From: Schmidtea polychroa
Taxonomy: Eukaryota
Direction: 5' to 3'
DNA length: 64,000 nucleotides
Assembly: GCA_044892525.1 (NCBI GenBank)
Contig: CM097886.1
Coordinates: 35,898,001-35,962,000 of the forward strand
How positions within the stretch are numbered: the stretch's first letter is position 1; each line of letters starts with the position of its first letter. A model generated the notes under the pieces. It ran no database searches, was not told the DNA's origin, and saw only the letters and a program-made list of their open reading frames with translations. Both the position numbers and the translations under genes were made by a program. This document shows, piece by piece, positions 1 through 18,128 of this stretch.

Positions 1-3000
1 AGGCTACAGGCCGAGGAAGAGAGGATAAAACAAGAACGCAACCAACAACGACAAGAACAACCATTGCGAATAAATATGATGAAGTTAGTAAAAGACATGA
101 AGAGCCAGTATTGCTACAATTACGGGAAAAGCCCAAGGGTAGTACCCATGACTGAACCAGAAAAGGTAAAAGAAATAACAACGGAAATGAAAACAGAGAA
201 TTCAACCACGATTTTAAAAGGAAACCAGAGAACTCAGAAAATATTCTGGAAAAAGATAAAGGATAAAATCGAAAAAGAACATAATAAAGCGAAAACCGAG
301 ACAGAAGATGAAAATAACAAGAGCGAGGAACAAACCAGTCAACTAAATCACCAAATGCTACAAGAATTAGAATCAGAAGAAACAACAATATTCGAAAGAA
401 AGAAACTAAAGAGAGTACCAAGGATGAGAAACTTGCAAATCAATATGATGAAAAGGACAAAAGATGTAGCATCGTCAGACGAAGAAGAAGATTATGTAAG
501 TAGTTTGGGTGGAGAAATACTACAGCCGAGTGAAATAAGCGAACCCCCAAAAGGGGAAATCAAAGAGGAAGAAAGCGGAAACGAGATAACCAGTGAAAGT
601 GAAGACGAAGATATCGAAATAAAGTTGAGAAAAGCAAGGGAGGAAGCGATAAAACAGGTAGCCGAAATACTCCCAGTAGTAGTGAGGAACCAAGAGTTCA
701 TCGACGTAATACCATTCAGGCGATTCGTGCAAAAAGTGATGAAATTGGAAAGAAACGAGAAAGATCTAATACCAAACGAGGAAAAATCAATTATAAAAAA
801 TTATATGGAAAAAATGAAGCAGGCCGATACCACGCGGTATGTAATAAAAATTGGAACGAGTAGAGGACTTGAAAGAATGTGGATAAAAAATACAGTCACC
901 GACGAACTTTTCGATTGGATACGAGAACATTTGGGAAGTTCGAGAAAGAAAGAATATCTGTATCAATACCAAGGAGAACAGATCAAACCAGATATGCACT
1001 TAGTAGATGCACTAATATGGCCAGGAGAAACGCAAATACTGAAGTTGCATAAAGAAAAACAACCAGCCAACCTTTACGATTGGGCTAAAGATGCCAAGGC
1101 AGAATATGATTTTAATATCAAATTGAAATTAGAACAAATAAAACAATGTACTCTGAGACGAAACCTGGATAAGCTGATCAAACAAATTCAAGAACAAGTA
1201 GAAGACAACTGGGATTTACTCATCACCAGACGAGCCCCAGCCATGTACGAACTAATGAGCCGGTTGCGAGATACAGAAATGCTCCGAATGAGTGATTGGA
1301 GAACCATAAATTTGATCCACAAATATGGAAGGTTAAAAGAAACCCAGCCACAGAGGTTGGAAATAACCATATGGTTACCGAACGAAGAAAAACGACGAAT
1401 AAAAATGAGCAATCAGAGTACAGTGGATGACTTGGTATCAAAAATAAACCAAGAGATAACGGAAAAGGTACGTAGCGAAAGTAGTGATGGTATGGTGGAT
1501 GATGTAGTCATGATGTACGATAAGATAATATTACGAACGGAGGACGACACCTCGTTAAGCGAAATGGGTATGTGGGACAATCATCAGATAATCAGGATAG
1601 TACCAATGGATGAATTCCGAACAAGAGATGTAACATATCAAAAAGAAATACGAGACCGGATGAAAACGTTATATCGAAAATCTACAGAAATAATTGAAAT
1701 CCATCAACAATGGTTAAAAGAAAAAGAGCTACAAGGAAAAATCACGAAATTAAATACCAGATCTTGCAGACGAACCCCATGGGAAAGAGTGTGGAATGCA
1801 GAAAGTAAGGAATGGGAAATCCGGAAAGGAACCTTCGTAGAAACAGACATCGGTGAGACAGAAAGTGAATCGGAGGAAGAAGAAGAGGAACCCCCAGAAT
1901 ATGAAGAGGAAGCAAGGGGACAGACATCAGATGACGAAAGCGAGACGGATGTCACATCAGAAAGCGAAAATGAAGCGAGACATATTCATGCAATGAGGAA
2001 AAAGGAACGGGAATATGCTGATATGGACGGCGAGGAAGCGACGGAAGCAAGAGAACGAGAAGAGACAGAAAGGTATAAACAATTAGGCGATATCTTAGCA
2101 ATGGGAGCGAAAAATCAAAAACGCCAAGTAGTAGCGTTGGCTAACATCATCTTAAAGACATCAGAGAATATCCACAATCTGAGAGGAATGGCAAAGGCAA
2201 TAGAGGAATACCGGCAATATAATGAATGGTATCCAGAACAGCTAGAACAAATTATTCGAAAATGGAGAAATCAGGAATGGGCACAAGACACCCAGGAGAG
2301 GTATCACATCCAAATCAAGTATCCGGACAAGAGCATCGAGGAACTAGAGGTGCATCCAACAACAAAAATTAGAGAATTAAAAAAGAAATTAGCATATGAA
2401 ACTCCATTCCATCTGCAACTATTCGGAAAATCACTAGACGATAATGCAGACGTCGGAATAACACCCATGAGATTGGAAGAGACAAATGTGTTAACAATGG
2501 CAGAAACGTTGGGGAAACCGTTAAAAAGGAAAAGTAAAATTATTAAACCAACAAAAGGCAGCTTGAGTACTCCAAGTCCGAACAAAGCACCAAGTAAATC
2601 TAATGAAACTGAAGAAGTTGAAGAGATAATCCTGGAAGATAGTGACGATGAACCAGGAGAAAGATCACCGCTATTAGTAAGATGGCCGACAGGAGCCGAA
2701 ATGTGGACTAACAACCAGCCATCAACGAGTTATCAACAACCCACGAAACTAAACATCAAAGAAATCATCGACAATACTACGGAAACCGAAACGGATGAAC
2801 AATTCCAGAAGCAAAGAGAACCAACGAAAGTAACACCAGAAAGTCAAACCGACAAAATAATAGACGAATGGAATGAGTGGCTAAGAAATAACGATAGCTC
2901 ATTACCCAGAACGGATAACGAAAGAAATCCGAATTACGAAAATACCAGAGAAGCCGGAACGATGATGGAAAAACGGGCAAAAGGAAGACCTAAGAAACAA

Positions 3001-6000
3001 GGAGAAAAGTCTGAGTTAAAAACCAAAGAACAATTAAAGCAAGAACAAGGGCAAGTTCGATTAGAAAAATTGGATAAAATAGTATGGGATCTAAAGGAAG
3101 CCCAACCAACGATCGAAAGAGGAGAAAAATGGATACGAGAATTGTTAAAAGATATATTAATAATAACAAACCCACAACTTAGACGTTTGTGGCAACGGAA
3201 AGTAGCCAGTACGGAAGCTAGACAATTATGGCACACCATTTCGGGGATAATCCCAAAGTTAATCAAAGAGAAAACGAAAACCACCAAAACGGATTGGGAC
3301 GAAACAAAGAGAGTGATTGAGCAGCTCACGACAAATGCAAATGATGACGAACATCACCTAGTGGTAATCACGTATTTGATGTATAATTTGATGGGACTAG
3401 CTGCGAGGAAAATACCAAATAAACAGTTTGCAAATCATGTGGAAATGACCGTTTTAATCATAGAGAATACTATTGAACCACATATTATTCGTGCAGGAGG
3501 ATGGAAAAGACTAATACAAGCGCCACGGAAAAATGAGCAAGAAAGGTCGATGCAAGTTAGATTGAAAAAACTGTTAAATGAACTAGAATGGGAACTACCG
3601 ATGAAAGATCCCGCAAGCAGAAAAGCATCAATAAATTCGTTAATGATGACTATGATGATATGGATGTTGTGCACAAGTGGAGCAACAGGCTTCACCATCT
3701 ACGATTGTGACAATATGATAATGAGAGATAAATACTCATTGAGAGACATAGAAGAATGCAGACAAGCCTCACCCAACAAATTGGACATCGTGAGAACAAA
3801 AGTTACTTACCATGTATATCAAGAATCAGATTTCATCAGAACGCAAGCAAGGGAATGCGTAGTATCAAAAAAGGTACTCGCATATTACTGTGGACAATAT
3901 TCGTATTCGACTCTTATACTACCCGGTCTGGATAAGGAAATCGTATCAATACAACGAGAGGATTGTAAAGAGCTATTTAGAACCGGAGCGCTAAAAATGC
4001 ATAACGGAGTGACAATTCACGGACAAACTGGAATGATTAAAACCGAAAGTGTTTACGTATCCGGAAAAGTAAAATCATCAGATGGGTCATGTAACGGAGG
4101 GACGTATACGATCCGAGGCGAGGTAATATCGGGAGTTGTAGTGATCGAGTCTTACACGGTCGAATTAAAAGAATACGAAGCGCAATTTGACGCAAATAAT
4201 TACCAAATGAAGACCAACCCAGCGTGTAAAGCTACAGAAAACGTATGCAGGACAGGAGTATCAACTATAATCTATGAAGCTAATACCCAAAAATGCCGAC
4301 TCCAACTGTTAAAAAGTGCTTTGTTCAATGAAGTAAAAGGAGAAATATATGAGAACGAGAACGACGAGGATGGAAACGACAGAGTGAGAATGCGAAATGG
4401 AAAACCAATGCCACCATCTCCCAGAGAAAAGAGACTTTCAACGCAGAAGACACCAACAGCATTAATCACAGACGATCCAGATCTAGGTATGAGGTTTATC
4501 AAAGAGAAAGAAACCACCAAATGTGACAGTATAGTATATAAAACCAATTACGCAGGCATCTATATGTCGAGACAAATAATCGATAGAGCAGTGGGAAAGA
4601 TAGCAACGGAGGACGTAAAACTATACTTATATGCAAATAATAAAATGGATTTTCTATTTCATCGTGGACAAACGACCTTGCAAAAAGTATATTACGATCT
4701 GATACAAAACGATTGTTCATTGAATAAAGAAATATTGAAAACAAAGCTAGCTATTGCGATAACGCACCCAGATAACACGATGCCATCACTCCCATTACCA
4801 GATGGACACTTTGGTAGAATGGTAGGAGAAGTGATGTACACATACCAGTGTACCAAGACGTATGCACGAATGCCAGAAAAATCCATACTACCCGAAAAGA
4901 GATGTGCAAATGAATTAGAAATCCGTTATAAAGGACAAAATCGATTCGTCCAACCAGTCACTAGAATTATGAATCCAGTGGGTTTCTACCCAAATCTCTT
5001 TAACTGTTCTAATGCATACGGACCTTTATATGAAAGGCCCGATGGGAAATGGATGATGTTACCGGGAAAAACCATATCCGAGGAGCCCAAGAAATTTGGA
5101 TTAATAGAACTCGCCACAGAGCTGGATTTCAAACCTATAGACGTGTCAAACGGTGGTATGTATTCCCCGGAAGATCTAGAAACAGCACGACTTAACGTAC
5201 TCTTTCCAGCCAGACGAGAATCCATTTTGTCTAATATGGTAACAATAACTGGGGGCACCAACTATCAATCAGGCCCGAATTACGAGCTGCTATTATCGCC
5301 AGACCATTTTCAACAAGCTACGTCAAACATGATGAAAGCAATGTGGGGAAGATTCTTAGTTTTTGGACAAATGATGGCCGGGATATTAGGGATCATACTC
5401 ATAATTCAGATAGTCAGAGTAATACTAACACAAATGTTAGCTTGTTTCGATATATACAAGCGGGAAAAGAAAGTTAACTGGAAAATGATAGTAGGTTTCT
5501 TACCATTTTTAGCTAAGACCATGGTATTACATGGCCACTCAAAAGACATCCATCGGATAAAGCGATTGATAAAAATATTAACAAAGATTAAAGGAACCGA
5601 CGAAGAAGTAGGCAGACGATTCCGGAAAGTAATGTACGATGAGGCAACAAGACGACAATTGAAAAAGAATAAGCCAAAATTCTTGGACCGATTTAGAAGC
5701 CAATCATCTAACAGCGATAGTGACGACGATGATAACGGGAACGATAAATGTCTTTATCCAAACAGAAACCCAAACGAAAAACCAATGGAAACGGCACCAT
5801 ATTGGGAAAAGGAAAAGACAAACACCTGGATCGCCAATGGAAGCTATATACCACCGGATATCGTGGGACCACAAGCAGCTTTGACCATGACACAAAATAT
5901 GTATCCGCAATTACCGAGCCAACCCGGTATGCATTATATGCCGACACGACGTACCAAAAGTGTAGATCAAGCAGATGACGTAAGAACAATCGCAGCAATG

Positions 6001-9000
6001 AGTCTGCCTGGAGGTCCAGCAGTAACAGTTATGATTCAAATCAATGGTAAAGAAACCAATGCTATGATAGACACCGGAGCTAATGTATCAGCGATAGCGA
6101 TTAATCAAATCCCCAGTAAACACTGGAAAAATATCGAATCAACAACAATTCACATCATAGCATGTAGTAAAGAAACAGTGGACGTGGTCGGAAGATGGTG
6201 GACTACATTGAGATACCAGGACAACGAAATTGAAACGTATTTGGCAGTAATACCAAAACTTAGCGTACCATGCATAATCGGAACGGATTTGATGCCAGAA
6301 TTGTTAAAAGAAGTCGTAATTGACTTAACAACCATGTGTTTAAAAGACAAAACCGGTAGAATATGCAAAATGAATGCAGTCATCAGATGTCCAGAAAAAA
6401 TAATAGTACCAGCAAAATCGCAGATGATTTGTCAGATAAAAGTGGATACGGGTATGGAAGGAGAAGTTATCTTTGAACCAAGCAAGTCATTCGAAAAGCG
6501 ACGAGAATTACCACTCGCAAGAGAAATAATCACAATAAACCAAGAAGGAGTGATACCGCTCAACATCACGAATTTCGAAGAGGAAGACAAAATCATTTAT
6601 GAGAACGAAAAATTGGGAAGATTGACCCCAATGATGGACATAGAATTACCGAAAGTGACCAACGAGATGATCAAAGATGATGAATTATGGACAATAGATA
6701 GTATGTTGTTGACGAATGATGAAAAGAAAAAATTACACCGATTGTTGGTAGAATATAAAGATATATTCGCCATCTCAGACTTAGACTTGGGTACATGCGA
6801 TGTTACCCTACATGCAATACCCCTCATAGATGAAACTCCAATTGCATTAAGACCATACAAGCTAGCAGAAATGCAAAAAGAAATAGCCGAAGCAGAAGTA
6901 CAAAAGATGCTGGACGCAAAAGTAATCGAACCAAGTTGCTCACCTTGGCAATTCCCAGTGGTCATGGTGAAAAAGAAAGATGGCACCCAACGATTCTGTA
7001 TCGATTATCGGAAGCTAAACGCAGTGACCAAGAGAGATACCTATCCATTGCCGGACATCAATGAGATGTTATTGATGTTGCAAGGGGCAGCATATTTTAC
7101 TTCTTTAGATCTAAAAAGTGGATACTGGCAGATTAAAGTCAAAGATGAGGACAAAGAGAAAACAGCTTTCACGTTGGGACGAGATCTATATCAATTCAGG
7201 AAAATGCCATTTGGACTGACCAACGCACCAGCATCATTTCAACGGTGTATGAACTTTGTCACCCATGGAATCAAACAATGTATGGTATATATTGATGATT
7301 TACTAATCTATTCAGCGACATTTGAACAACATCTAGAAGATATCCGAAACGTATTTATTAGATTAAGACAGTGGAAACTCAAACTCAAACCATCAAAATG
7401 CGATTGGGCAAAGGAAAAAGTCACGTTTTTAGGACACATAGTGTCAGCTAAAGGAAAGGAGCCAGATCCAAGAAACATTGAGAAAATAAAACTATGTCCA
7501 GCACCGAAAACTGTCACCCAAGTTCAGGAATTTCTAGGATTATGCGGATACTATCGCAAATTTATCAAAAATTATGCAGGAATTGCAAAACCAATCCAGG
7601 AATTAGTAAAGAAGGATATTTCGTTCATTTGGGAAAAAGAACAACAACAGGCGTTCGAAACGCTGAGAGATAAACTAATCGAAGCACCTATCCTCGTACA
7701 CCCAGATTTTAAGAAGCCATTTCTATTGGCAACGGATGCAAGCGGGTACGCGGCAGGCGCGATTCTGGGACAATTAGACGATGAGGGAAAAGAGAGAGTA
7801 ATCGGGTATTACAGTCGAACATTCAAAAAGCACGAAAAGAACTATTCGGTAACAGAACGAGAAGCATTGGCTATAATACAAGCTATCAAACACTTCCGAT
7901 ATTTACTATGGGGACATGAGATATGCATAACCACGGATCATCAACCATTAGTGTGGTTAGGGCAACATAAAGAAGCGTCCAGTAGACTGATGCGATGGGC
8001 CATGCAATTGCAAGAATACTCCCCATTTATAAAATTCAAAGCGGGAAGAGCAAATGCCAACGCCGATTGTATGTCAAGATTTATTTTCCCAGATTTGGTG
8101 GATTCAGAAATGCAACGCATATGCTTAATAGTAGCGGAAGATTTGGATTTCTGTCAATTACGAAAGGACCAACAAGAGGACGCGGAATTAAAACAAATTA
8201 TCGATTATGTAAAAACCGGAAAGACAGAGGTATATGCGAAAGACCAAAAATTAAAAGAACATATGGATAAACACCGACACCGATATATTATAGAGAAAGA
8301 TTGGTTGCTGATAATGGATGGGGAAAAACGATTAATGTGTATACCGGAAAACCGACGAAAAGAGTTACTAACGCAATATCACGATGGGAGATTGGGAGGA
8401 CATATGTCATCGAAAAAGACGTTAGCAAGAATGAAACAGAAATATTTTTGGCCTACGTTAACTGAAGATGTAACCGAATGGGTAAAAAATTGTCTAACTT
8501 GTGCAACCAGGAAGAATACTGGATCGAAATGGAAAGCACCTTTAACGCCAATGCCAGTACCAATAGAACCAATGACAATGATATCCATGGACGTAGTTGG
8601 TCCACTACCAGAGTCAGATAAAGGAAACGTTTACATTCTAGTGATCACAGACTTTCTTACGAAATTCCCAGAAGCATTCGCGATGCCAGACCAAAAAGCT
8701 AAAACAATCGCAAAAATTTTGGTAGAAGAGATATGTTGCCGATATGGAACACCAAAACAAATCTTAACCGATCAGGGAACTAATTTTATGAGTGAGATAA
8801 TGAGCGAAGTAACAAATTACTTCAAAATAGCAAAACTAAGAACATCTCCATACCACCCTCAAACCAATGGGATGACGGAAAGATTTAATGGAACACTTAT
8901 ACAAATGTTATCAAACTACGTTGACCGTCACCAACGAGATTGGGACGAATATATAAACCTATGTCTTATGGCGTACAGAATGTCGATTCACGCATCAACG

Positions 9001-12000
9001 AAAATGAGCCCATTCAAATTAATGTACGGAAGAGAATGTAACATGCCAATGGACCTGGAATACCAACCACCGATATCGCAGTATATGGAGATCGATGATT
9101 ATGTTACGAAATTCAAGGAAAGAATGCAAGAAATTTGGGAAACTGCGGGATTGAATATCAAGTTCTACCAGGAAAGTTATAAAGATTTACACGATCGAAA
9201 GAAAAACGTGAAGCAACATACGTTCCAAACAGGTGATTGGGTAATGATAGAAACCCCGGAATTAATTCCAGGAACCGCAAAAAAGTTACAACGCAACGGA
9301 AAAGGACCATATGAGATCTTATTCGTAGGCGAAACTAATGTAAGAGTGAAATTGGTAAATAACCCCTTTACCAGACCAATATACGTAAACGTGGCACGAT
9401 GCAAATCAATTCCAAAAACAGCCACTAGTCAACCAGAAGGCCGTACATTAACCACACGTTCGCAAACCTACCGAATGAACATGATGCAACAACTCGCAGA
9501 ACCGATCACTGGACGATTAGGTATCCAACCATCAGAAGCGGAAAAGATTGTAAAAGAGGTAAAAATTAAAATACCTGGATGGGCAAAAGATCGATTAGAT
9601 TTCGAAATATTAGGAGGATTATTGACGATGATCGAGAACTATGCAAATAGAGAAAGGACACACCCATTATTGCGAGTAGTCAAAAGCCAATGGCCAATAT
9701 TATTTACAATAACAGATCATTACGGAGACACACCATTACACAAACTCATGAAAGTAGGTAACAACGAGCAAATACTAGAAACAATAGAAGCATTTCACGA
9801 CTGCAAGCGATCAACAGAACAAACAAACAACCAAGGTTACACACCATTAATGATAGCCGCAAACAGAGGCAAAACAAAAGACATTATAACCGCATTACTC
9901 GATACCGGATCGAAAATAACTACACAAGACCACGAGCGGAAAAACGCTCTACATCATGCTATCGAAGGGAGAAGTACCGAGGCGTTCACGTCATTGATGG
10001 AACTACTATCATATGAGGACAATCGGGAAGTCGGAAACATGTATGATGGATTGTTAACAGCGATCAAAGAAAAACTGACGACAATTACCGAAATATTAAT
10101 TACATGGAGAAATCCAATTCGAAACGATTATATGATCAACGTAAACGAAGCGTTCACGAGAGGAGAGAACACGCTGATGAGAGAAGCTATGAAAGGACAT
10201 CATTTATTCGAAATCCCGAATCAATTACTAGAACGAGGGATAAAATTCACAAATCACAAAGACGAACAGTTAACAAAAAAGCGAATCGACACATTCGAAA
10301 AATCACTATTCCAATTTACTAACCAAGTACGAAATAAATATTGGGAAACGGTAAGTGTGTTATATATGATGGACACGATGAATAACATCCGCGAGAATTA
10401 CATGGATATTATCCAAATACTTACAGCAGAGGAACGAATCAATAATCCAAACGGAAAGAAAATGAAAATAAAGTATGAGAAATCCAGGGAATCAAAGTCA
10501 ACAACGAACCAAACGGTCACAAACAACGTCATCGAAACCAAATCAATGAGTATAGATCAAGAGGCAATAATACGCAAAGCAAAAGAAGTGTTCTTTGAGG
10601 AAATGCTAGAGCTGCCAGACGAAATAATATTGTCCAAAATAATAAAAGCCGTACACACATACGCAAGAGATCAAACCACGGGTTTAGATATCGGGAAAAT
10701 CAAAACCTTCTTGCCTCGAGCATTTACGATGGTAACGAAGGATTCCAGAACACCCCTACAACAAGCAATACTAGCGGCGAAAGAAAATAGAGCAATAACG
10801 ATCGTGAGAATCCTTGGAGAGATGGGCGAGGAAACCAACACGAAAAATGAACAAGGTGAAACCGCCATGATGTATGCAGCTATAACGAAAATACACCCAA
10901 AAACACTCCACATCCTACATCAATCAGGATCGAAACTAGACGAAAAGTCCAATGAAGGAAATTCCACCTTGGACTGGGCAACCATACAGCCAAACTTAGA
11001 AATGATCAGATTTATTTGCAAAAATGCGACAAAAGAAGAAGTTGAAAATATGTGCAAAAACACATCTCAGTTTCAATGGAATACGGTACGGAAAAATCTA
11101 GAAGCAATGAAATTATTATTAACCTGGAGAGTACCACAAAATAATAAATATGCGATAAATGTAAACGAATTCTACGAAAACGGAGAAAATGCGATGGTAA
11201 AGAATACCCTAACCAAGGGGGGGACACCTAAAATAATTTTAATAGTATTAAATAGAGAAGACCTAAAATTCACGCAAAATCAGAACGAGCAACAACGAAT
11301 TGGGAAACATCGTCGTATGCAATTGAGAGAGTTAGTTAAAGAATGGAATAGAAAGAGACATGCTGCAACGGGTAGAAAAGAGTTTGAATTCGAAGCAAAA
11401 TTAGCAAGAAACAGAGTGCTAACAGCATATCGCAGATTATTGAACGATATAAATGTCGAGGACGACATTTTAAACGACAGCGGGGGAGATAAACACGATG
11501 ACAATAACGGAAAAGGCCGAAAGGAGGATAAAGAGAAAAGAGAACAGGAGGAGGGTAAACCGGAAAACAAGGATTCGGATACGAAAAGAGAGGGAAACAG
11601 CCCGGGAACTAAGACCAAAGAGGAGGAAAAATCGAATAATGGAAAACAGAGGGTATGCCTACCTTTCACTAACAAAGAAATAGAGACAAATATGATATTA
11701 ATGATAATTATGCTTACCATGATAGAGTTAGTAACAGCTCAGGGAGGGACGAGAACGATAAAAGAAACCAAAGAAGCGGAGAATCAAGATAGCAAAGAGG
11801 ATGAACTAAAGCAAGAAAAGAAAAAGCAAGCACAAGAGCAGCAGTGGGATTTAAAGGAAGAATGGGACTTAAAGGAAAGGTGCATACTAGGAAGATGCAT
11901 GTCTAGAGCGTATCAGAAACTAGTACTGATAAATGAGGCCACAGAACCAATAACAGAAGTAAGAATACAAGAAGCATACCGAAATCGAGACGGGAAGAGA

Positions 12001-12693
12001 ATAACGAACGTCAAAGGAAAAGAGGTACACCTAGGAAAAGGTGGTGAAGTAGTAATAACGCAGATCCAACCTAGAAAAGAGCACAAAGTCTGTATTTCAA
12101 GATTAGGACCAGGCGAGAGATGCCATCAATATGTGACGCAGCAGCAGCCGCCGAAAGAATACACGGTTTGTATCTGGAGGAATGAATCAAAAAGAGAATG
12201 CCGACGATACCCGGGGAAAAGAGGAAAGAAAAGAAAAAACCACGACGAAAAGAACGAAGGAGGAAAGCACAAGAAAACTGGTGAGGAAGCTCAGGACAAC
12301 TATGTTTCGGAGGAAGAGATGGAAAAAATACAAAAGATGGCAAAGGAGGGTATGAACGAGGAAATAGCAAGAATACGGGAAAGGATGAAAGGAAATGGCA
12401 AAAGAGGAAACGAGAAAAGTACAGAAGCGATATCAACATTAACAAACAAGGAAAAACCAGAGAGTATAAGCGTGAAGCAGATGATGTGGATCAGTGGGAT
12501 AATAATAACAGGGGCATTCCTAATCATAACGGGGGGAACAATAAAAATAATTAAGGATAAACGACATCGCGGAGAACTGGAGATGACTCGAATCAGAAAT
12601 TTCCAACATCGAGTGAAACGACCAAGTGATATCAAACAAGAACAGTGGGTGGAGGCCTGGAACGCTCAGCGCCCTCCAAACTCACGTATATAG
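1..12693 (+). CDS. Giant polyprotein (Ubl x3, Bcl-2-like, Env, PR, RT, RNase H, IN, ankyrin, TM protein); 5' incomplete
   Basis: Frame is open from base 1 (RLQAEEERIKQ...); the track start at 64 is only a TTG. Motifs IDTGA, YIDD, TDASG, HDGRLGGH..C..C, DVVGP, TDQGTNF, TERFN, GPY. Confidence 0.95.
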   Translation, partial: RLQAEEERIKQERNQQRQEQPLRINMMKLVKDMKSQYCYNYGKSPRVVPMTEPEKVKEITTEMKTENSTTILKGNQRTQKIFWKKIKDKIEKEHNKAKTETEDENNKSEEQTSQLNHQMLQELESEETTIFERKKLKRVPRMRNLQINMMKRTKDVASSDEEEDYVSSLGGEILQPSEISEPPKGEIKEEESGNEITSESEDEDIEIKLRKAREEAIKQVAEILPVVVRNQEFIDVIPFRRFVQKVMKLERNEKDLIPNEEKSIIKNYMEKMKQADTTRYVIKIGTSRGLERMWIKNTVTDELFDWIREHLGSSRKKEYLYQYQGEQIKPDMHLVDALIWPGETQILKLHKEKQPANLYDWAKDAKAEYDFNIKLKLEQIKQCTLRRNLDKLIKQIQEQVEDNWDLLITRRAPAMYELMSRLRDTEMLRMSDWRTINLIHKYGRLKETQPQRLEITIWLPNEEKRRIKMSNQSTVDDLVSKINQEITEKVRSESSDGMVDDVVMMYDKIILRTEDDTSLSEMGMWDNHQIIRIVPMDEFRTRDVTYQKEIRDRMKTLYRKSTEIIEIHQQWLKEKELQGKITKLNTRSCRRTPWERVWNAESKEWEIRKGTFVETDIGETESESEEEEEEPPEYEEEARGQTSDDESETDVTSESENEARHIHAMRKKEREYADMDGEEATEAREREETERYKQLGDILAMGAKNQKRQVVALANIILKTSENIHNLRGMAKAIEEYRQYNEWYPEQLEQIIRKWRNQEWAQDTQERYHIQIKYPDKSIEELEVHPTTKIRELKKKLAYETPFHLQLFGKSLDDNADVGITPMRLEETNVLTMAETLGKPLKRKSKIIKPTKGSLSTPSPNKAPSKSNETEEVEEIILEDSDDEPGERSPLLVRWPTGAEMWTNNQPSTSYQQPTKLNIKEIIDNTTETETDEQFQKQREPTKVTPESQTDKIIDEWNEWLRNNDSSLPRTDNERNPNYENTREAGTMMEKRAKGRPKKQGEKSELKTKEQLKQEQGQVRLEKLDKIVWDLKEAQPTIERGEKWIRELLKDILIITNPQLRRLWQRKVASTEARQLWHTISGIIPKLIKEKTKTTKTDWDETKRVIEQLTTNANDDEHHLVVITYLMYNLMGLAARKIPNKQFANHVEMTVLIIENTIEPHIIRAGGWKRLIQAPRKNEQERSMQVRLKKLLNELEWELPMKDPASRKASINSLMMTMMIWMLCTSGATGFTIYDCDNMIMRDKYSLRDIEECRQASPNKLDIVRTKVTYHVYQESDFIRTQARECVVSKKVLAYYCGQYSYSTLILPGLDKEIVSIQREDCKELFRTGALKMHNGVTIHGQTGMIKTESVYVSGKVKSSDGSCNGGTYTIRGEVISGVVVIESYTVELKEYEAQFDANNYQMKTNPACKATENVCRTGVSTIIYEANTQKCRLQLLKSALFNEVKGEIYENENDEDGNDRVRMRNGKPMPPSPREKRLSTQKTPTALITDDPDLGMRFIKEKETTKCDSIVYKTNYAGIYMSRQIIDRAVGKIATEDVKLYLYANNKMDFLFHRGQTTLQKVYYDLIQNDCSLNKEILKTKLAIAITHPDNTMPSLPLPDGHFGRMVGEVMYTYQCTKTYARMPEKSILPEKRCANELEIRYKGQNRFVQPVTRIMNPVGFYPNLFNCSNAYGPLYERPDGKWMMLPGKTISEEPKKFGLIELATELDFKPIDVSNGGMYSPEDLETARLNVLFPARRESILSNMVTITGGTNYQSGPNYELLLSPDHFQQATSNMMKAMWGRFLVFGQMMAGILGIILIIQIVRVILTQMLACFDIYKREKKVNWKMIVGFLPFLAKTMVLHGHSKDIHRIKRLIKILTKIKGTDEEVGRRFRKVMYDEATRRQLKKNKPKFLDRFRSQSSNSDSDDDDNGNDKCLYPNRNPNEKPMETAPYWEKEKTNTWIANGSYIPPDIVGPQAALTMTQNMYPQLPSQPGMHYMPTRRTKSVDQADDVRTIAAMSLPGGPAVTVMIQINGKETNAMIDTGANVSAIAINQIPSKHWKNIESTTIHIIACSKETVDVVGRWWTTLRYQDNEIETYLAVIPKLSVPCIIGTDLMPELLKEVVIDLTTMCLKDKTGRICKMNAVIRCPEKIIVPAKSQMICQIKVDTGMEGEVIFEPSKSFEKRRELPLAREIITINQEGVIPLNITNFEEEDKIIYENEKLGRLTPMMDIELPKVTNEMIKDDELWTIDSMLLTNDEKKKLHRLLVEYKDIFAISDLDLGTCDVTLHAIPLIDETPIALRPYKLAEMQKEIAEAEVQKMLDAKVIEPSCSPWQFPVVMVKKKDGTQRFCIDYRKLNAVTKRDTYPLPDINEMLLMLQGAAYFTSLDLKSGYWQIKVKDEDKEKTAFTLGRDLYQFRKMPFGLTNAPASFQRCMNFVTHGIKQCMVYIDDLLIYSATFEQHLEDIRNVFIRLRQWKLKLKPSKCDWAKEKVTFLGHIVSAKGKEPDPRNIEKIKLCPAPKTVTQVQEFLGLCGYYRKFIKNYAGIAKPIQELVKKDISFIWEKEQQQAFETLRDKLIEAPILVHPDFKKPFLLATDASGYAAGAILGQLDDEGKERVIGYYSRTFKKHEKNYSVTEREALAIIQAIKHFRYLLWGHEICITTDHQPLVWLGQHKEASSRLMRWAMQLQEYSPFIKFKAGRANANADCMSRFIFPDLVDSEMQRICLIVAEDLDFCQLRKDQQEDAELKQIIDYVKTGKTEVYAKDQKLKEHMDKHRHRYIIEKDWLLIMDGEKRLMCIPENRRKELLTQYHDGRLGGHMSSKKTLARMKQKYFWPTLTEDVTEWVKNCLTCATRKNTGSKWKAPLTPMPVPIEPMTMISMDVVGPLPESDKGNVYILVITDFLTKFPEAFAMPDQKAKTIAKILVEEICCRYGTPKQILTDQGTNFMSEIMSEVTNYFKIAKLRTSPYHPQTNGMTERFNGTLIQMLSNYVDRHQRDWDEYINLCLMAYRMSIHASTKMSPFKLMYGRECNMPMDLEYQPPISQYMEIDDYVTKFKERMQEIWETAGLNIKFYQESYKDLHDRKKNVKQHTFQTGDWVMIETPELIPGTAKKLQRNGKGPYEILFVGETNVRVKLVNNPFTRPIYVNVARCKSIPKTATSQPEGRTLTTRSQTYRMNMMQQLAEPITGRLGIQPSEAEKIVKEVKIKIPGWAKDRLDFEILGGLLTMIENYANRERTHPLLRVVKSQWPILFTITDHYGDTPLHKLMKVGNNEQILETIEAFHDCKRSTEQTNNQGYTPLMIAANRGKTKDIITALLDTGSKITTQDHERKNALHHAIEGRSTEAFTSLMELLSYEDNREVGNMYDGLLTAIKEKLTTITEILITWRNPIRNDYMINVNEAFTRGENTLMREAMKGHHLFEIPNQLLERGIKFTNHKDEQLTKKRIDTFEKSLFQFTNQVRNKYWETVSVLYMMDTMNNIRENYMDIIQILTAEERINNPNGKKMKIKYEKSRESKSTTNQTVTNNVIETKSMSIDQEAIIRKAKEVFFEEMLELPDEIILSKIIKAVHTYARDQTTGLDIGKIKTFLPRAFTMVTKDSRTPLQQAILAAKENRAITIVRILGEMGEETNTKNEQGETAMMYAAITKIHPKTLHILHQSGSKLDEKSNEGNSTLDWATIQPNLEMIRFICKNATKEEVENMCKNTSQFQWNTVRKNLEAMKLLLTWRVPQNNKYAINVNEFYENGENAMVKNTLTKGGTPKIILIVLNREDLKFTQNQNEQQRIGKHRRMQLRELVKEWNRKRHAATGRKEFEFEAKLARNRVLTAYRRLLNDINVEDDILNDSGGDKHDDNNGKGRKEDKEKREQEEGKPENKDSDTKREGNSPGTKTKEEEKSNNGKQRVCLPFTNKEIETNMILMIIMLTMIELVTAQGGTRTIKETKEAENQDSKEDELKQEKKKQAQEQQWDLKEEWDLKERCILGRCMSRAYQKLVLINEATEPITEVRIQEAYRNRDGKRITNVKGKEVHLGKGGEVVITQIQPRKEHKVCISRLGPGERCHQYVTQQQPPKEYTVCIWRNESKRECRRYPGKRGKKRKNHDEKNEGGKHKKTGEEAQDNYVSEEEMEKIQKMAKEGMNEEIARIRERMKGNGKRGNEKSTEAISTLTNKEKPESISVKQMMWISGIIITGAFLIITGGTIKIIKDKRHRGELEMTRIRNFQHRVKRPSDIKQEQWVEAWNAQRPPNSRI
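835..1050 (+). other. Ubiquitin/SUMO-like domain 1 in polyprotein
   Basis: YVIKIG...LFDWIREHLG...YQYQGEQIKPDMHLVDALIWPGETQIL resembles the beta-grasp pattern; weakest of the three. Confidence 0.4.
1354..1605 (+). other. Ubiquitin-like domain 2 in polyprotein
   Basis: LEITIWLPNEEKRRIKMSNQSTVDDLVSKI...MMYDKIILRTEDDTSLSEMGM matches the Ubl pattern (TV.DL..KI; L.DD..LS..G). Confidence 0.6.
2299..2499 (+). other. Ubiquitin-like domain 3 in polyprotein
   Basis: YHIQIKYPDKSIEELEVHPTTKIRELKKKL...LQLFGKSLDD aligns by eye with ubiquitin [27 protein letters not shown]...LIFAGKQLED. Confidence 0.7.
3061..3525 (+). other. Bcl-2-like helical domain in polyprotein
   Basis: BH2-like IEPHIIRAGGWKRL preceded by amphipathic helices at BH1 spacing; the canonical NWGR is absent (DEHHLVV). 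The upstream part (NPQLRRLW...EARQLWHTIS) could alternatively be MADF/Myb-like. Confidence 0.6.
3628..5448 (+). other. Internal signal peptide + envelope (class III-like fusion) glycoprotein + TM anchor
   Basis: Hydrophobic LMMTMMIWMLCTSGATG then FTIYDC..YSLRDIEEC..YQE..REC..YCG: Cys spacing of chuvirus-type/retrotransposon-borne glycoproteins. NxS/T sequons (NCS, NYQS-like region); TM FLVFGQMMAGILGIILIIQIV. Confidence 0.8.
6001..6372 (+). other. Retropepsin aspartic protease
   Basis: VMIQINGKETNAMIDTGANVS and CIIGTDLM. Confidence 0.95.
6840..7560 (+). other. Reverse transcriptase (Ty3/gypsy)
   Basis: SPWQFPVVMVKKKDG, RFCIDYRKLN, LDLKSGYWQI, MPFGLTNAPASFQR, VYIDDLLI (YIDD at 7288-7299). Confidence 0.97.
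7700..8085 (+). other. RNase H (Ty3/gypsy)
   Basis: LATDASGYAAGAIL, YSVTEREALAI, TTDHQPL, NANADCMSR. Confidence 0.95.
8125..9480 (+). other. Integrase (HHCC, DDE core, GPY module)
   Basis: HDGRLGGH...CLTC; SMDVVGPLP; LTDQGTNF; GMTERFN; GKGPYEI. Confidence 0.95.
9721..11250 (+). other. Ankyrin repeats, two clusters (~9721-10250 and ~10741-11250)
   Basis: GDTPLHKL, GYTPLMIAA, KNALHHAI, RTPLQQAI, GETAMMYAA, GNSTLDWAT. Confidence 0.85.
11686..12693 (+). other. C-terminal type I membrane protein: signal peptide, FN3-like/Cys module, TM, short tail
   Basis: MILMIIMLTMIELVTA/Q; VVITQIQPRKEHKVCI resembles FN3 strands E-F; TM WISGIIITGAFLIITGG; ends NSRI*. Confidence 0.6.
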
Positions 12694-12853: not shown

Positions 12854-13213
12854 ATGGATCAAGGAAATAACGAAATGAACCACAATACAGTAACTGAAGA
12901 ATTATGGAAGCAACAATGTGCCGTATTAGCACAATTAGTGTCCAATTTGCAAGAACAAGGACTGACGATGCACAGAAACCTGATCGAGAGTATGAACAGA
13001 GGATTTAGTTATTTGAAGATAATTGAAGACCAGAGGTTAAAAATCGAACAAATGCAAAGAGAGATAGAGAGGATAACCCAATATAGCCGTCGACAGGAAA
13101 TTGAAATAGACAGAATGATGGAGGAAGCAGAACAGACAGAAATAGAAGACTGGTCGGAATGGCTAATGAATAGAGAGGAGAGCGGACACGAAGCCGACTC
13201 TTCCGAACCCTAA
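12854..13213 (+). CDS. Accessory ORF1, 119-aa coiled-coil protein with acidic tail
   Basis: ORF track; same-length homolog at 51825-52184(-). Confidence 0.85.
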   Translation: MDQGNNEMNHNTVTEELWKQQCAVLAQLVSNLQEQGLTMHRNLIESMNRGFSYLKIIEDQRLKIEQMQREIERITQYSRRQEIEIDRMMEEAEQTEIEDWSEWLMNREESGHEADSSEP

Positions 13214-13298
13214 ACCAAACCTAGCTCAAAATGTAAATAATTGTAAATAAAATATCGAACCTGTATCGATAAGAACTATTTGTACATATAATTATAGA

Positions 13299-14687
13299 AT
13301 GGATAAACGACAAAGAGAAGAGTTCAGAGAGATTGTCGAGCAAGTCCGAAAATCTACAACGATCAGAATACACAAACATGTTACGTGCGGAATATGTGAA
13401 AAGTTGTTAAAGGAACCTCACCAAACGCAATGTGGATGCAGAGTATGTAAAGAATGTATCAGTGAAGCAATAAAGAATAGACCACAGAAGTGCCCGGTGT
13501 GTAAAGAGACACTAATATCGAGTTTAGAAGACACTAACGAGGATAAAGCCGCAGTGAAAGACATGTTAAACACCAACCTGGGATGCAAAAATGCCCCATG
13601 CGAATGGAAAGGAGTAATATGGAAGGTAGTACAACATATGGGAGAATGTATGTACCGAATTGGCCAGTGTGAAAGGTGCCATAAAACCATTCGAGCAAGC
13701 GAAGAAAAAGAGCATCAAAGGCAGTGTGAAGAGAGATTGGAAAGATGTGAACACTGTGGAGAAATAGATACGTGGATAAATCTCACCCTCAAACATCACA
13801 ATGTCCAAGAGGAGAGAGTATGTGCAGAGTTCAGTGGGGAATGCCCGAACGGATGCGAAGAAGGGAGAATAATAAAAATAGCCCAACACCTAAAAGAATG
13901 TGAGAAGAAAAGGATGATATGTGTACTAGGTAGATGGGGTTGTCAGAAATTACTACACCGAGGTGAGTTACCACATCATTTAGTAGAAAATGCTTCAACT
14001 CACGCAGAAATGTGGTCGACTGCGTTACAAGAAAGCGAAGAGAAAGTAAAACAAATGGAGATAGAGATAACATCGTTGAAAGTGTTAGTCAAAGAACTAC
14101 TAGAAGAAAGGAAAGCGTTCGAAGAAGCCCGAGCAAACATAAAGATGCAAATAAACCGAACAGAAATCAGTAATAATCAGGCCAAGGAGCTACATCAGAA
14201 AATACGGGAAATAAATCTAAATGAGATAACCCCAACAGCACCCTACATATGGAAAATAACGGGAGTAAAAGAAAGAATACGAAAAGCAAAAACCGGAGAA
14301 GAGACAAGAATAACAAGTCCTACATTCCATTCTTGGAAAAATGGGTACAAAATGAAAATGAAGATATATCCCAACGGGGACGGAACCGGATCAGATACGC
14401 ACTTTTCGATTTTCTTTCTGTTATGTAAAGGAGAATACGACGAAATATTAGAATGGCCGTTCCAGGCAAAAATCGATATTACCCTGATGAACAACCAAAG
14501 TATACATGAGCAAAGCTTCAAAACAACGGGGAATCAAATAGCTTACCAGAGGCCCCTCAACGAAGAAGGATCAGCAACAGGAGCACCCACGTTCATCTCA
14601 CAACAAAGAGTAGAAGATATGGCGAGAAATGATACCATATATATCAAGATGACCGTGAGGAAAGAGGAGAAGGGTAGAACGGAATAA
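13299..14687 (+). CDS. TRAF: TRAF-family protein (RING, TRAF zinc fingers, coiled coil, MATH), 462 aa
   Basis: CGIC..LLKEP.QT.CG.RVC..CI..CPVC; repeated C..C...H...C fingers; YIWKI, SPTF...GYKMKMKIYPNGDG...HFSIFFLLCKGEYD.ILEWPF; homolog at 50346-51734(-). Confidence 0.95.
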   Translation: MDKRQREEFREIVEQVRKSTTIRIHKHVTCGICEKLLKEPHQTQCGCRVCKECISEAIKNRPQKCPVCKETLISSLEDTNEDKAAVKDMLNTNLGCKNAPCEWKGVIWKVVQHMGECMYRIGQCERCHKTIRASEEKEHQRQCEERLERCEHCGEIDTWINLTLKHHNVQEERVCAEFSGECPNGCEEGRIIKIAQHLKECEKKRMICVLGRWGCQKLLHRGELPHHLVENASTHAEMWSTALQESEEKVKQMEIEITSLKVLVKELLEERKAFEEARANIKMQINRTEISNNQAKELHQKIREINLNEITPTAPYIWKITGVKERIRKAKTGEETRITSPTFHSWKNGYKMKMKIYPNGDGTGSDTHFSIFFLLCKGEYDEILEWPFQAKIDITLMNNQSIHEQSFKTTGNQIAYQRPLNEEGSATGAPTFISQQRVEDMARNDTIYIKMTVRKEEKGRTE

Positions 14688-14879
14688 CCAATCGAATAAT
14701 GTTGTATATAATAATCTGTATATATCGGTGTATATAACCAATAAAATATTATATAATAATAGTATGAAAACCCTAAATACGAAAACCCAAAAATGATGCG
14801 AAAATTCCCCAAGAAACAGTAAATAATGAATAAATTCCTTTTTCATAATAAAAGATTAATCGATGTCTATGATTTAGAG

Positions 14880-15935
14880 ATGACAAAAGAGAAAATAACC
14901 GAAACTGCGATAGACCCAACCAATGTCAACAAGACACAAATTCTCCGAGAACATAACAAAAAATGGAACAAAGTAATGTTCCAACTAACTAATCTCACCC
15001 GAAATCACATCGAAGAAACTAGAGAAGATGAGAATAGTCAATACCAATGGTTAATACACAACTTAAGAGCGGAAGCAGAAGCATGCAAAAGAGCATCAAA
15101 ATGGGCGTCACTAGAAAATACCCGCCAAGAAGCACACAGCCACTACTTAAAGCAGCTAGTGCAGGAAGCGAGAAAGAGACTTACCGATGAGAACACCAAG
15201 CGCGAAGCGGAAAAACAAATAGAAGACAGGAAAATGATGCACTTAGTGGCAGAAGCGAGGAAATGGAAAAGACAAAACAGAGAAATGAAAAAAGAGATGA
15301 AAGAATTGCCCATGAGACTCGGATATGAAAGCGAACAAGGTAAATGGGAGGAGAATTTAATAATAAAGGAAGAATTGAAAAGGTTGAGAAAGGTCGCCGC
15401 CCGAAGCCAAACCTGGCAAACAAAGGCTATGGAGTTTGAGCGACATTTGGCAATGAAGTGCGACATAAGAGAGCACGAGAATGCCGCAATGGAAGAGATG
15501 ATAACCCAACAAGCGGGACGGGTTGTGGAATTAGTAAATCAGGTAGAAGAGATGAAAAGAGACCTTAATGGATTACAAGGATCGCTGGAACAAAGAAACA
15601 TGGTCCTAGCGGGAAAAAACAGAAAATTAGAAAACGAAAGGAAAATGTACACCGAAAATATTAAAAACTTAGAAATAGAAATTGAAAAATGGAAGGGCGA
15701 CGAGAAAATCAAGGCCCTAGACAAACAGATAGAGGCGCAAGATGAAGAGACAAGGTATCTCACCTATCTGCTCGACGAGGAATTGAATATCACTCGAGCT
15801 CTAAGAGACGAAGTTAGTGAATTGAGAGCTCAAATTCCCCAATATTACCTACCATACGACCCTATTGCGATACAGTTACATTCCGCGGTCGATAGTGATG
15901 AAGGTTATGTAGGCCAGGAGGAAACCTTCGTATGA
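14880..15935 (+). CDS. Accessory ORF3, long coiled-coil protein (~351 aa)
   Basis: ORF track 14826-15935; start moved to ATG 14880 because homology to copy B (49088-50125) begins there. Confidence 0.85.
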   Translation: MTKEKITETAIDPTNVNKTQILREHNKKWNKVMFQLTNLTRNHIEETREDENSQYQWLIHNLRAEAEACKRASKWASLENTRQEAHSHYLKQLVQEARKRLTDENTKREAEKQIEDRKMMHLVAEARKWKRQNREMKKEMKELPMRLGYESEQGKWEENLIIKEELKRLRKVAARSQTWQTKAMEFERHLAMKCDIREHENAAMEEMITQQAGRVVELVNQVEEMKRDLNGLQGSLEQRNMVLAGKNRKLENERKMYTENIKNLEIEIEKWKGDEKIKALDKQIEAQDEETRYLTYLLDEELNITRALRDEVSELRAQIPQYYLPYDPIAIQLHSAVDSDEGYVGQEETFV

Positions 15936-16103
15936 GGGTGGATGAAAAAATGAAAAACTAAAAACCGGGACGTATATCCCAAACAAAAAAATTAAAGTAT
16001 TGTAAAAGTATTCAGGGGACTGTAACCCAAACTATTAAATTTTATATCAATGTATACGTATAAGTCGCACTATAGCGCACCATTAACTGTACATATTATA
16101 GAT

Positions 16104-16802
16104 ATGAAAATCGAGGAAATGATAGAAATTATGAGCGACGTAGAAGAGGGAGAGATTGAGGCAGAAACAACAGAAACCCAAACGCTAAAGGCCGAGTTAC
16201 GGGAAGAGAAATACGAAAACGGGAGATTAATAAACAAATACCTGGAGGACCGGAAAATGATAAAGGTGTTAAAGAAAGAGTGCGAAGCGTTGGGGGAAAT
16301 AAAAAGAGAAACGGAAGAGGAAAATGAATGGCTACACGAACAAAGGAAGCGAGGGAAAAACTGGGAAAAGATAGCGGAAGAACTATGGAAAGAGAGGGCA
16401 AGCTTCAAAGCAAAGGAGGTAATCCAAGACTACTGGAAAACTGAGGCGAAGGAGCGCCAAACAGCTATAAATAAATTAAAACGACAACTAGAAGAAAACC
16501 AACGGGAAAGTAAAGAAATGAGGAAGTGGGTCCGCAAATATAGAGAAATAGAAAGAAAACATCAACAACAAAATTACCTGCAAGAAAACGAACAAGATCT
16601 CCTACAAATCGAGCTAAAAAGAAACCTTGAAAAGAAAAGGGAAGAAATTAGACGCTTGGAAAAAGAAATTAGACATCTAAAGAGAGAAGCCCGTGAAAAA
16701 GACCGACAATTGGAAATGCTGCCCGAGTTAAGACACAGGGTAATTAAAGCAGAGTCCACCTTGATGAGAATCGGCGAAAATAATCCAAATCAGAACCATT
16801 AA
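16104..16802 (+). CDS. Accessory ORF4, coiled-coil protein (~232 aa)
   Basis: ORF track 16050-16802; ATG 16104 matches the copy B start (48212-48913). Confidence 0.85.
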   Translation: MKIEEMIEIMSDVEEGEIEAETTETQTLKAELREEKYENGRLINKYLEDRKMIKVLKKECEALGEIKRETEEENEWLHEQRKRGKNWEKIAEELWKERASFKAKEVIQDYWKTEAKERQTAINKLKRQLEENQRESKEMRKWVRKYREIERKHQQQNYLQENEQDLLQIELKRNLEKKREEIRRLEKEIRHLKREAREKDRQLEMLPELRHRVIKAESTLMRIGENNPNQNH

Positions 16803-16857
16803 ATTAAGGGTCATTAAAACCAATTGTAAATAAACATAATGAATGTATAATAGTATC

Positions 16858-17511
16858 ATGCGAGGCGAGATGATGATAACAATGATGGTATTGATGATTC
16901 TGATGGAGAGCAAACAAATAGACGCCCAACCGAAAATCGTACGAGATTACCGAAATCAAAATCAAGAACCTAAACAAGAATCCAGTCAATGCACATACCC
17001 GATGACCGTAAAAACCCATATCATCCAAACCATTCAATCAACCCGATCACACATCAACAACATCCAAACAATGTGTAAAAAGAATCCCATTTGTAAAATG
17101 ATAAACAAACAAATCCTCGAACAAATTCAACAATTCGACCAGTTGGAACAACAAATGCAACAAGAGAATTTTGGAAATCTGGTAGAAAAGCCAAAAATAC
17201 CTCCCGAAATCAATGACACCCATTATCTCATATATGCGGTGATCGCAGAAACCCTCCTCCTATGTCTACCAATATTCATGAAAATTTACGAAGTTCGAAA
17301 TAGATGTAGAATCTCGACATCAATAAGAGTAACCTCGAACCAAAATCCTCAAGAAGTGCCCCTGACAAATCTTAACCCAACCCCATTCCGACCTCGAACC
17401 CCGAGTAATCAACCAATCCAGCCGAAATCTAATAGTCAGACCTATCTCAACATCAATACCCAAACCAACCAACAGCCGCCAGCAGAAGCATCAATGGTTA
17501 ACAGTTCATAA
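16858..17511 (+). CDS. Accessory ORF5, type I membrane protein (signal, coiled coil, TM, P/Q/N/T-rich tail)
   Basis: MMITMMVLMILMES signal; TM YLIYAVIAETLLLCLPIFM; diverged homolog 47521-48156(-) shares I.ETL..C. Confidence 0.8.
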   Translation: MRGEMMITMMVLMILMESKQIDAQPKIVRDYRNQNQEPKQESSQCTYPMTVKTHIIQTIQSTRSHINNIQTMCKKNPICKMINKQILEQIQQFDQLEQQMQQENFGNLVEKPKIPPEINDTHYLIYAVIAETLLLCLPIFMKIYEVRNRCRISTSIRVTSNQNPQEVPLTNLNPTPFRPRTPSNQPIQPKSNSQTYLNINTQTNQQPPAEASMVNSS

Positions 17512-17734: not shown

Positions 17735-18068
17735 TGTTGGGCTGAGTCGAGAATTTAATCGTTGAAAAATAAGAAAGTAGGGAAGTAGAACATTAAGAAA
17801 AATAAAAATAAAATAAATAAAATCAGAAATAAAATAGAATAGGATATAAGGAAAATAATAATTAAGACATAAGAATTAAAACAAAAAATAAAATTAAGAA
17901 AAGATTAAAATAGAACAAGTTGACAAATAAATAAAGAGGAATTCAAGAAATAATAAGGAAATTAAGGAAATAAATAGAAAAACATATTAAAAATAAAGAA
18001 AATAAGGAAAAAACAACCTAAAAACAAGAAAATTATATTAAATTAATAGAAATAAGCGGTACTCAACT

Positions 18069-18105
18069 CTGATTGGTCCGCACAAATAAGAATTTGATAT
18101 ATATA
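18069..18105 (+). promoter_or_regulatory. CCAAT box (reverse, ATTGG) and TATA-like element in LTR A
   Basis: CTGATTGG 18069-18076 and ATATATATA 18097-18105; copy B has CTGATTGG and TATATAT at the equivalent position (46761-46788). Confidence 0.5.
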
Positions 18106-18128
18106 CAACTACCAAAAACATTAAATTT

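Follow-up and report, generated by a model that had tools for sequence, protein, structure and literature searches.

Organization of the Locus

The window, namely the whole 64,000-nt stretch of the Schmidtea polychroa contig CM097886.1 that was analyzed, contains parts of two LTR retroelements, element A on the plus strand and element B on the minus strand. Element A is 30.1 kb long and is flanked by the 4-bp target duplication ATGC, element B is 30.6 kb long with the 4-bp duplication ATAT, and the internal region of the elements measures 22.3 kb. The following features were located:

1..12693, plus strand: element A polyprotein ORF, residues 388-4617 (ORF and Pfam); residues 1-387 lie upstream of the window
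12854..17511, plus strand: element A accessory ORFs, comprising the next four lines
12854-13213, plus strand: accessory ORF of 119 aa
13299-14687, plus strand: TRAF-like ORF (RING...MATH), with its element B counterpart at 50346-51734, minus strand
14826-15935 and 16050-16802, plus strand: coiled-coil ORFs
16843-17511, plus strand: small ORF with a signal and a TM
17735..21611, plus strand: element A 3′ LTR (3,877 bp, TG...CA); the 5′ LTR, located before the window, has the same sequence
43121..47290, minus strand: element B 3′ LTR (4,170 bp), with 2 mismatches to its own 5′ LTR
47521..51734, minus strand: element B accessory ORFs, in the same order as in A
52351..63999, minus strand: element B polyprotein ORF, whose ATG lies at 66231

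The TRAF-like gene is complete and intron-less, with a RING, zinc fingers, a coiled coil and a MATH domain. Between the primer-binding site and Gag, ORFs of 161 and 159 aa with a C-terminal IAP-like RING were found (L001:5630-6115 and L004:4738-5217), and conserved acceptor-like sites lie downstream of them. The LTRs contain ORFs of 314 aa (A, 20133-21077) and 254 aa (B) that have the motif CFSCADKN in common. One contig terminates in an A-run at 18004, a weak hint, given the A-rich region, that polyadenylation may take place only ~270 nt into the LTR; U5 would then measure ~3.6 kb. Between the two elements lie a hAT transposase with a BED finger (31565-33364) and a second BED-type fragment (22875-23282).

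A and B are both young Ty3/gypsy elements of 30 kb and are assigned to the Burro type by architecture. The Ty3/gypsy (Metaviridae) characters found were the PR-RT-RH-IN order, a YxDD RT, TG...CA LTRs, a short target duplication and a tRNA primer-binding site, which both elements carry 7 nt inside the 5′ LTR end and which is complementary to the host tRNA-Pro(TGG). The Burro characters were a total length above 30 kb, one ORF of ~5,000 aa with Gag, in-frame Env, Pol and ankyrins, and MATH/TRAF in or beside ORF1, here in a downstream ORF (MATH E 6e-28). At the position reported for the dUTPase-like domain of Burro, no Pfam match was obtained in the A and B polyproteins. The family of element A has at least 40 copies, ~99% identical, in the 781-Mb genome, and it moved recently. 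The size of this genome, its four large contigs and its AT-rich host DNA would suit a dugesiid planarian. A tandem array of tRNA-Pro(TGG) genes with ~475-bp spacing lies near 130.9 Mb of G000:C1 (L011), and 1,577 pattern matches to tRNA-Pro(TGG) were counted across the genome.

A Long Open Frame Kept by Selection

Frame 1 of element A is open from position 1 to the stop codon at 12691-12693 (4,230 codons in the window), which agrees with the first-pass annotation, where no stop or frameshift had been seen over 1-12693. The frame of element B, which had been given as open over 64000-52351, was likewise found open, although it begins at 63999 and not at 64000 (3,882 codons in the window). According to the flanking DNA of the same contig, the ORF of element A starts at an ATG 1,161 nt upstream of the window and encodes 4,617 aa (4,732 codons from stop to stop), the ORF of element B starts at the ATG at 66231, outside the window, and encodes 4,626 aa, and each has a Gag bearing three CCHC knuckles.

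Along the polyprotein, the Pfam matches follow the order Monjiviricetes_fusion (E 1e-66), protease, RT, RNase H, integrase and ankyrins. The in-frame position of Env upstream of Pol, to which attention had been drawn as a novelty, was recovered as an arrangement, but its novelty is not supported, the same arrangement being published in the Burro account of PMC6431247.

The 4,732-codon frame was present at 25 of the 42 best-scoring genomic matches and, by hand count, at 60 of the 118 top-ranked matches (one with a stop inside the match), both lists being ranked by score, so that intact copies are favored in these counts. The long open frame is neither a chance occurrence nor a single-copy accident. 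Elements A and B are ~82% identical at the DNA level, with synonymous sites near saturation, and their dN/dS was 0.01-0.10 in most segments (Env, Pol, ankyrins, second ectodomain and TM2), with values of 0.046 for Env, 0.10 for ectodomain 2 and 0.04 for TM2. The highest dN/dS was found for signal 2 and its linker (0.24 on 25 codons), where constraint is weakest. The frame is kept by selection.

Gag, Env and a Predicted First Internal Signal

Gag, which lies upstream of the window, matched Retrotrans_gag (E 1e-10) and zf-CCHC (E 6e-13) in Pfam. It is followed in the window by:

2290..2559, plus strand: weak ubiquitin-like domain (E 0.004, below the Pfam cut-off)
3178..3525, plus strand: Bcl-2-like domain with a BH2-type GGW motif (E 0.085, below the cut-off), ~45 residues before signal 1
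3640..3690, plus strand: predicted internal signal peptide 1 (hydropathy and homology), with predicted cleavage after 3690
3691..5355, plus strand: Env ectodomain of gB-like/class III type, with 14 Cys, one sequon and one furin-like REKR
5371..5436, plus strand: TM helix 1, the Env anchor (19-residue hydropathy 2.53)
5473..5529, plus strand: weaker hydrophobic helix (19-residue hydropathy 1.31)
61428-61378 and 59697-59632, minus strand: signal 1 and TM1 of element B, counterparts of the A segments

The Bcl-2-like match was also obtained in sister subfamilies (E 0.003 and 0.0004, below the cut-off), and the PDB matches of this region were to the Bcl-2 BH2 at E 0.2-0.8, also below the cut-off. 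The relation of Env to herpes gB was seen with PF24664 (E 1e-66), and a 74-sequence profile of the Env family retrieved only gB from the PDB (33 of 33 rows), weakly, with a best E of 0.004.

When 1.84 billion representatives were searched with the Env region, 1,066 matches were obtained, of which 150 were listed. The listed matches include 98 of 600-800 aa, and in 81 of them the motif xxx[YF]DC occurs within residues 1-60; a hydrophobic stretch precedes the motif in 74 of these 81 proteins of stand-alone size. Segment 1 of the window (3640-3690) ends A-T-G/F-T-I-Y-D-C, so that F-T-I-Y-D-C directly follows it in the same register as in the stand-alone relatives. As judged from this homology, segment 1 occupies the place that the N-terminal signal peptide has in the stand-alone glycoprotein relatives.

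In proteins with an internal motif, a hydrophobic core of at least 2.05 precedes it in 20 of 22. The 17 that were scored have a small or aliphatic residue at -3 in every case and A/G/S/T at -1 in 16, as in the signal peptidase rule, and a comparable -3/-1 pattern was found at 11 of 6,346 positions of the Pol background. This scoring omits P0059, P0099, P0121, P0129 and P0138, with the core present in three and absent in two of them; P0138 has no hydrophobic segment before the motif. The window signal 1 starts L-M-M-T-M-M, and its core (2.05) is the weakest among the 17. Segment 1 is retained in distant polyprotein relatives. Env, protease and RT were found in one chain in seven database relatives (P0003, P0004, P0009, P0014, P0017, P0019 and P0157). 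The Env-Pol polyprotein P0009 is labelled as a protein of a Flavobacteriaceae MAG, and it is probably eukaryotic retroelement DNA that was binned with a bacterium.

Segment 1 could also be read as an uncleaved signal-anchor, possibly an inherited Bcl-2 tail anchor, by which Env would be tethered at both ends. The anchor of cellular Bcl-2 proteins is located after the BH2 region, and segment 1 sits 25-45 residues after the BH2 GGW in three subfamilies. The text of PMC13524379 notes that a predicted TM lies on either side of certain gB-type ectodomains. However, the small residues at -3/-1 and the motif at the mature end agree with those of the stand-alone glycoproteins, and the same segment was found in relatives that have no Bcl-2 Pfam match; an uncleaved anchor is considered highly improbable, and a cleaved signal peptide is preferred for segment 1.

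Enzymes and Candidate Protease Sites

The enzymes and the ankyrin repeats were assigned with Pfam:

6028..6303, plus strand: aspartic protease, with a candidate N-terminal processing site near 5989-6000
6967..8019, plus strand: reverse transcriptase (YIDD) and RNase H
8341..9405, plus strand: integrase, with candidate processing sites near 8119-8130 and 9475-9486
9763..11013, plus strand: ankyrin-repeat region in two blocks

The protease-site-like motif [IM]-[NRHAC]-[AML]-[MIV] was found in Gag, before and after the protease, at the RNase H/integrase junction and after the integrase. It has no match in either ectodomain and one match inside TM1, and the relatives have similar residues at the same domain boundaries. 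The motif itself was derived visually from the very sequences analyzed, so the boundary argument is partly circular, and the candidate protease sites at the cytosolic domain boundaries are offered as a lead. At least two aspartic-protease domains per polyprotein were found in the distant relatives P0003, P0004, P0005, P0007 and P0157, with up to 7 Pfam stretches in P0157.

A Probable Second Membrane Module Downstream of the Integrase

The C-terminal part of the polyprotein contains a second set of hydrophobic segments:

11686..11739, plus strand: predicted internal signal peptide 2 (hydropathy and homology), with predicted cleavage after 11739
11740..12480, plus strand: second ectodomain, with 6 Cys
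12481..12543, plus strand: TM helix 2 (hydropathy)
12544..12693, plus strand: predicted cytosolic tail, ending S-R-I
53358-53305 and 52563-52501, minus strand: signal 2 and TM2 of element B, counterparts of the A segments

Segment 2 has an acidic n-region and ends V-T-A/Q. The small stand-alone membrane ORF of the element has a Met-rich signal ending A/Q, similar to the polyprotein signals. Eight related sequences reach past the integrase, namely P0003, P0004, P0009, P0017 and P0157, together with L008, L010 and L013 from two other subfamilies of this genome (L010 and L013 belong to one); the RT of the database relatives is 47-56% identical to that of the window. A signal-like segment follows the integrase in all eight, and the complete signal-ectodomain-TM-tail module was found in six. 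P0017 has signal 2 and lacks a clear TM. In L010, signal 2 is followed by an exonuclease with no TM, whereas the module of the sister copy L013 is complete.

L010 was rejected as a true exception and is read as a copy-specific fusion, since of 81 matches scored no other was full-length; in most of the others the exonuclease is a separate ORF of ~496 codons. In this sister subfamily, an exonuclease-like accessory ORF (RNase_T E 0.014) follows the polyprotein (L013:4398-5888).

Ectodomain 2 is very basic (56 K+R) and has one sequon in A and none in B. It gave no Pfam match above noise, and no homologue outside this genome was found at E up to 0.001 (proteins of 188-601 aa). Between relatives, the similarity of the ectodomains is slight, and those of the relatives carry 2-4 sequons. 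A fold predicted from nine rows was of low confidence (pLDDT 51); its best structural matches were Ig V domains (Z 6.3, rmsd 3.6, 86 aligned), which is not significant, and Foldseek returned no match to the model at E 0.001. The single-sequence fold of a sister-family ectodomain was uninformative (pLDDT 33). The motif L.P.T.[YH].I, which we take to be FN3-like, was found in three of the six ectodomains scanned. These models suggest, but do not establish, a beta-sandwich (Ig/FN3-like) fold for ectodomain 2.

The tail end S-R-I is presumably class I PDZ-binding-like, and an S/T-x-V/I/L end, which we assume to be a PDZ-binding pattern, was found at five of nine complete C-termini (A, B, L008, L013 and P0157). 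The tail of the L008 polyprotein (L008:2100-2195) ends E-T-R-L and contains PPSY, presumably late-domain-like (PPxY). The first coiled-coil ORF of A (14826-15935) and that of B end E-T-F-V, and the L013 polyprotein does likewise.

The missing Pfam match, the lack of a homologue outside the genome among proteins of 188-601 aa, the basic composition and the pLDDT of 51 would suit a fused accessory region that is not translocated and has no luminal role. Yet the layout of signal, TM and short tail recurs in relatives whose ectodomains are dissimilar and carry sequons, and TM2 plus tail are 93% identical between A and B although more than 40% of the synonymous sites differ, so that a non-translocated module appears very unlikely. 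A translocated module is the reading retained below.

Proposed Membrane Topology and Processing

Hydropathy of at least 2.0 over 11 residues was reached in only four places of the A polyprotein, which correspond to the two signals and the two TMs, and in the same four plus one in the ankyrin region of B. The two signal-like stretches, each followed by an ectodomain and a TM, were thereby located as the first-pass annotation had them. It had counted two membrane crossings; two luminal excursions would amount to four crossings.

From the ORF, the domain order, the four hydrophobic segments, their conservation and the selection on the frame, we infer a scheme of translocation, cleavage, anchoring and stoichiometry. 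The Gag, ubiquitin-like and Bcl-2-like parts would be translated first, in the cytosol. Signal 1 would then direct the ribosome to the ER membrane, with translocation of the gB-like ectodomain into the lumen until TM1 halts transfer, so that the protease, RT, RNase H, integrase and ankyrins would be made on the cytosolic face. Signal 2 would resume transfer for the second ectodomain, and TM2 would end it. Signal peptidase would cleave behind both signals, and the element protease would release the Gag products and the enzymes. Soluble enzymes and two type I membrane proteins, Env and the C-terminal one, would result; the Bcl-2-like piece would keep signal 1 as a C-terminal anchor, and Pol would initially be tethered at both ends.

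Four membrane crossings, with signal peptidase cutting in the lumen and the element protease in the cytosol, are probable on this evidence. Processing by signal peptidase together with the element's own protease, as first suggested, is supported by the homology of segment 1 and by the candidate protease sites at the boundaries. Against the model stand the weak, Met-rich signal 1, the acidic n-region and low constraint of signal 2, the basic ectodomain 2 with few sequons, and the segments lacking in P0138 and P0017. The helix at 5473-5529 is taken to be amphipathic and not membrane-spanning; if it did span the membrane, the parity would flip, against the four-crossing model. P0157 has an extra signal and TM pair before Pol, so that the number of crossings ahead of its RT and integrase would remain even.

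A broader reading, less likely than not, is put forward tentatively. Burro-type Gag-Env-Pol elements may form a class of retroelements that make all of their replication machinery as a four-pass ER polyprotein, with Pol initially tethered between two glycoproteins, a conserved gB-like fusogen and a fast-evolving Ig/FN3-like attachment protein whose tail is often PDZ-binding, and with signal 1 doubling as an anchor for the Bcl-2-like piece; such a two-component entry system might serve cell-to-cell spread into stem cells. According to the text of PMC6884822, Burro elements rank with the most highly transcribed transposons of planarian stem cells, which makes movement between cells a live question.

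Splice-Like Sites and the Env:Pol Ratio

In A and B alike, most accessory ATGs have an acceptor-like AG a few bases upstream, and acceptor-like positions were recorded at 13296, 16100 and ~16853 in A and at 51738, 50133, 48918 and 48162 in B. The accessory-ORF spacers are 40-220 nt long, and the pattern resembles operon-style cis- or trans-splicing. Given these sites, the element probably splices or trans-splices. Two acceptor-like sites are conserved in the 5′ leader, and both copies have a GTAAGT donor-like site ~30 nt after the ORF1 stop. When contigs from three runs presumed to be RNA and one unlabelled run were compared with 1-19500, one presumed-RNA run gave contigs in 30 of 30 bins, mostly from related copies less than 95% alike. 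None of the 15 contig joints listed (of 52) was GT..AG, and such contigs can neither show nor exclude splicing.

The apparent use of acceptors for the downstream ORFs and the Met-rich signals in A and B, by which signal 1 could also act as an N-terminal signal on a subgenomic RNA, would fit a scheme in which subgenomic RNAs, spliced or trans-spliced and starting at the signal Mets, are the main source of Env and of the second membrane protein; the segments would then be ordinary N-terminal signal peptides, and the long frame would be processed in the cytosol. This was considered unlikely. Within the aligned ORF, no acceptor-like site shared by A and B was found ahead of signal 1, P0003, P0013 and P0023 lack Met in the signal or the preceding 15 residues, and 11 of the 17 scored proteins have no Met before the core. 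In addition, with no stop between Env and Pol, a subgenomic Env RNA would still yield an Env-Pol fusion. Translocation of the full-length polyprotein remains the preferred scheme.

For this polyprotein, production of Env and Pol at 1:1 is given somewhat less than an even chance. Single-ORF LTR elements usually make excess Gag, by splicing in copia and by Pol degradation in Tf1. Here too, extra Gag or Gag-Env might arise from shorter spliced or early-polyadenylated RNAs, or surplus Pol might be degraded, and Env:Pol would then not be 1:1 in particles; the chances for and against this are evenly balanced. It is compatible with the four-crossing model and disputes the stoichiometry only. The acceptor-like AGs before most accessory ATGs, together with a donor-like GTAAGA (5980) that immediately precedes the protease and is the same in A and B, leave room for a shorter Gag or Gag-Env RNA. 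On the other hand, the donor-like site is not significant, as A and B agree exactly at 3 of 13 such sites, against ~1-2 expected at 82% nucleotide identity (an estimate), and no -1 slippery heptamer conserved in both copies was found before 11469.

On the sense strand only, the motif TGTA[ACT]ATA occurs 10 times in the spacers of 12694-16842 (plus strand, A) and nine times in those of 52350-48157 (minus strand, B), compared with 0.2-0.25 expected from base shuffles. These sites could, we presume, be Pumilio elements or tandem UGUA 3′-end signals beside AATAAA. TGTAHATA is absent from ORF1, which is not significant (0.46 expected).

Comparison with Known Systems

The polyproteins of flaviviruses and alphaviruses alternate internal signals with stop-transfer helices and are cut by signal peptidase and a viral protease. 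These are unrelated RNA viruses, and the analogy is functional only.

As described in the text of PMC9094657, Atlas virus (Belpaoviridae) shares the single-ORF plan, its 2,828-aa Gag-Pol-Env frame being free of stops and introns; its glycoproteins are internal, with TMs and cleavage sites predicted in them, and a variable attachment protein accompanies the fusogen. It differs in its BEL/Pao RT, class II fusogen and C-terminal Env, and with Env at the C-terminus, the Pol of Atlas virus is not flanked by membrane segments. The GAG-ENV-POL order with an HSV/gB-type Env is reported in PMC13524379 for errantiviruses of Nematoda, Bryozoa and Platyhelminthes, including six Schmidtea entries, which resemble the present elements in gene order, Env type and the many intact copies. 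The main text of that paper, taken apart from its figures, does not contain the words 'polyprotein', 'fused', 'in-frame', 'splic' or 'Burro', and no treatment of processing or of a second membrane protein was found there.

The closest likeness is to Burro/GYPSM1, the giant gypsy elements found in dugesiid planarians (Grohme 2018 and Jurka 2007; summarized in PMC6431247). According to the Burro account of PMC6431247 (2019), they exceed 30 kb, with an internal region of up to 25 kb, and encode a polyprotein of ~5,000 aa with Gag, ubiquitin-like, BCL2-like, Env, PR-RT-RH-IN and ankyrin parts. Shared features are a size of ~30 kb with LTRs, one ORF of 4,600-5,100 aa, a CCHC Gag, an Env in frame between gag and pol, PR-RT-RH-IN, ankyrins and MATH/TRAF. 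The ubiquitin-like and Bcl-2-like matches obtained here, all below the cut-off, may correspond to the Burro domains of these names. In contrast to Burro1, where TRAF/MATH lies inside ORF1, and to the D. tigrina element, where it lies upstream, it is a separate downstream ORF here, and there is no BIR match here, only the separate upstream RING ORF. Neither internal signal peptides nor a membrane protein after the integrase come up in the account.

In the literature searched, neither the four-pass topology with a conserved post-integrase membrane protein nor the equivalence of segment 1 to a stand-alone signal peptide was found; Grohme 2018, Sacco 2022, supplements and figures may treat processing. 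The in-frame env between gag and pol was already known, the elements are of the Burro type by architecture, and with the headline arrangement known, nothing is overturned. The four-pass topology, if true, would explain how an env placed in frame between gag and pol can function, would add a second envelope-like protein that is not mentioned in the annotations of the family, and predicts exact cleavage sites that are easily testable.
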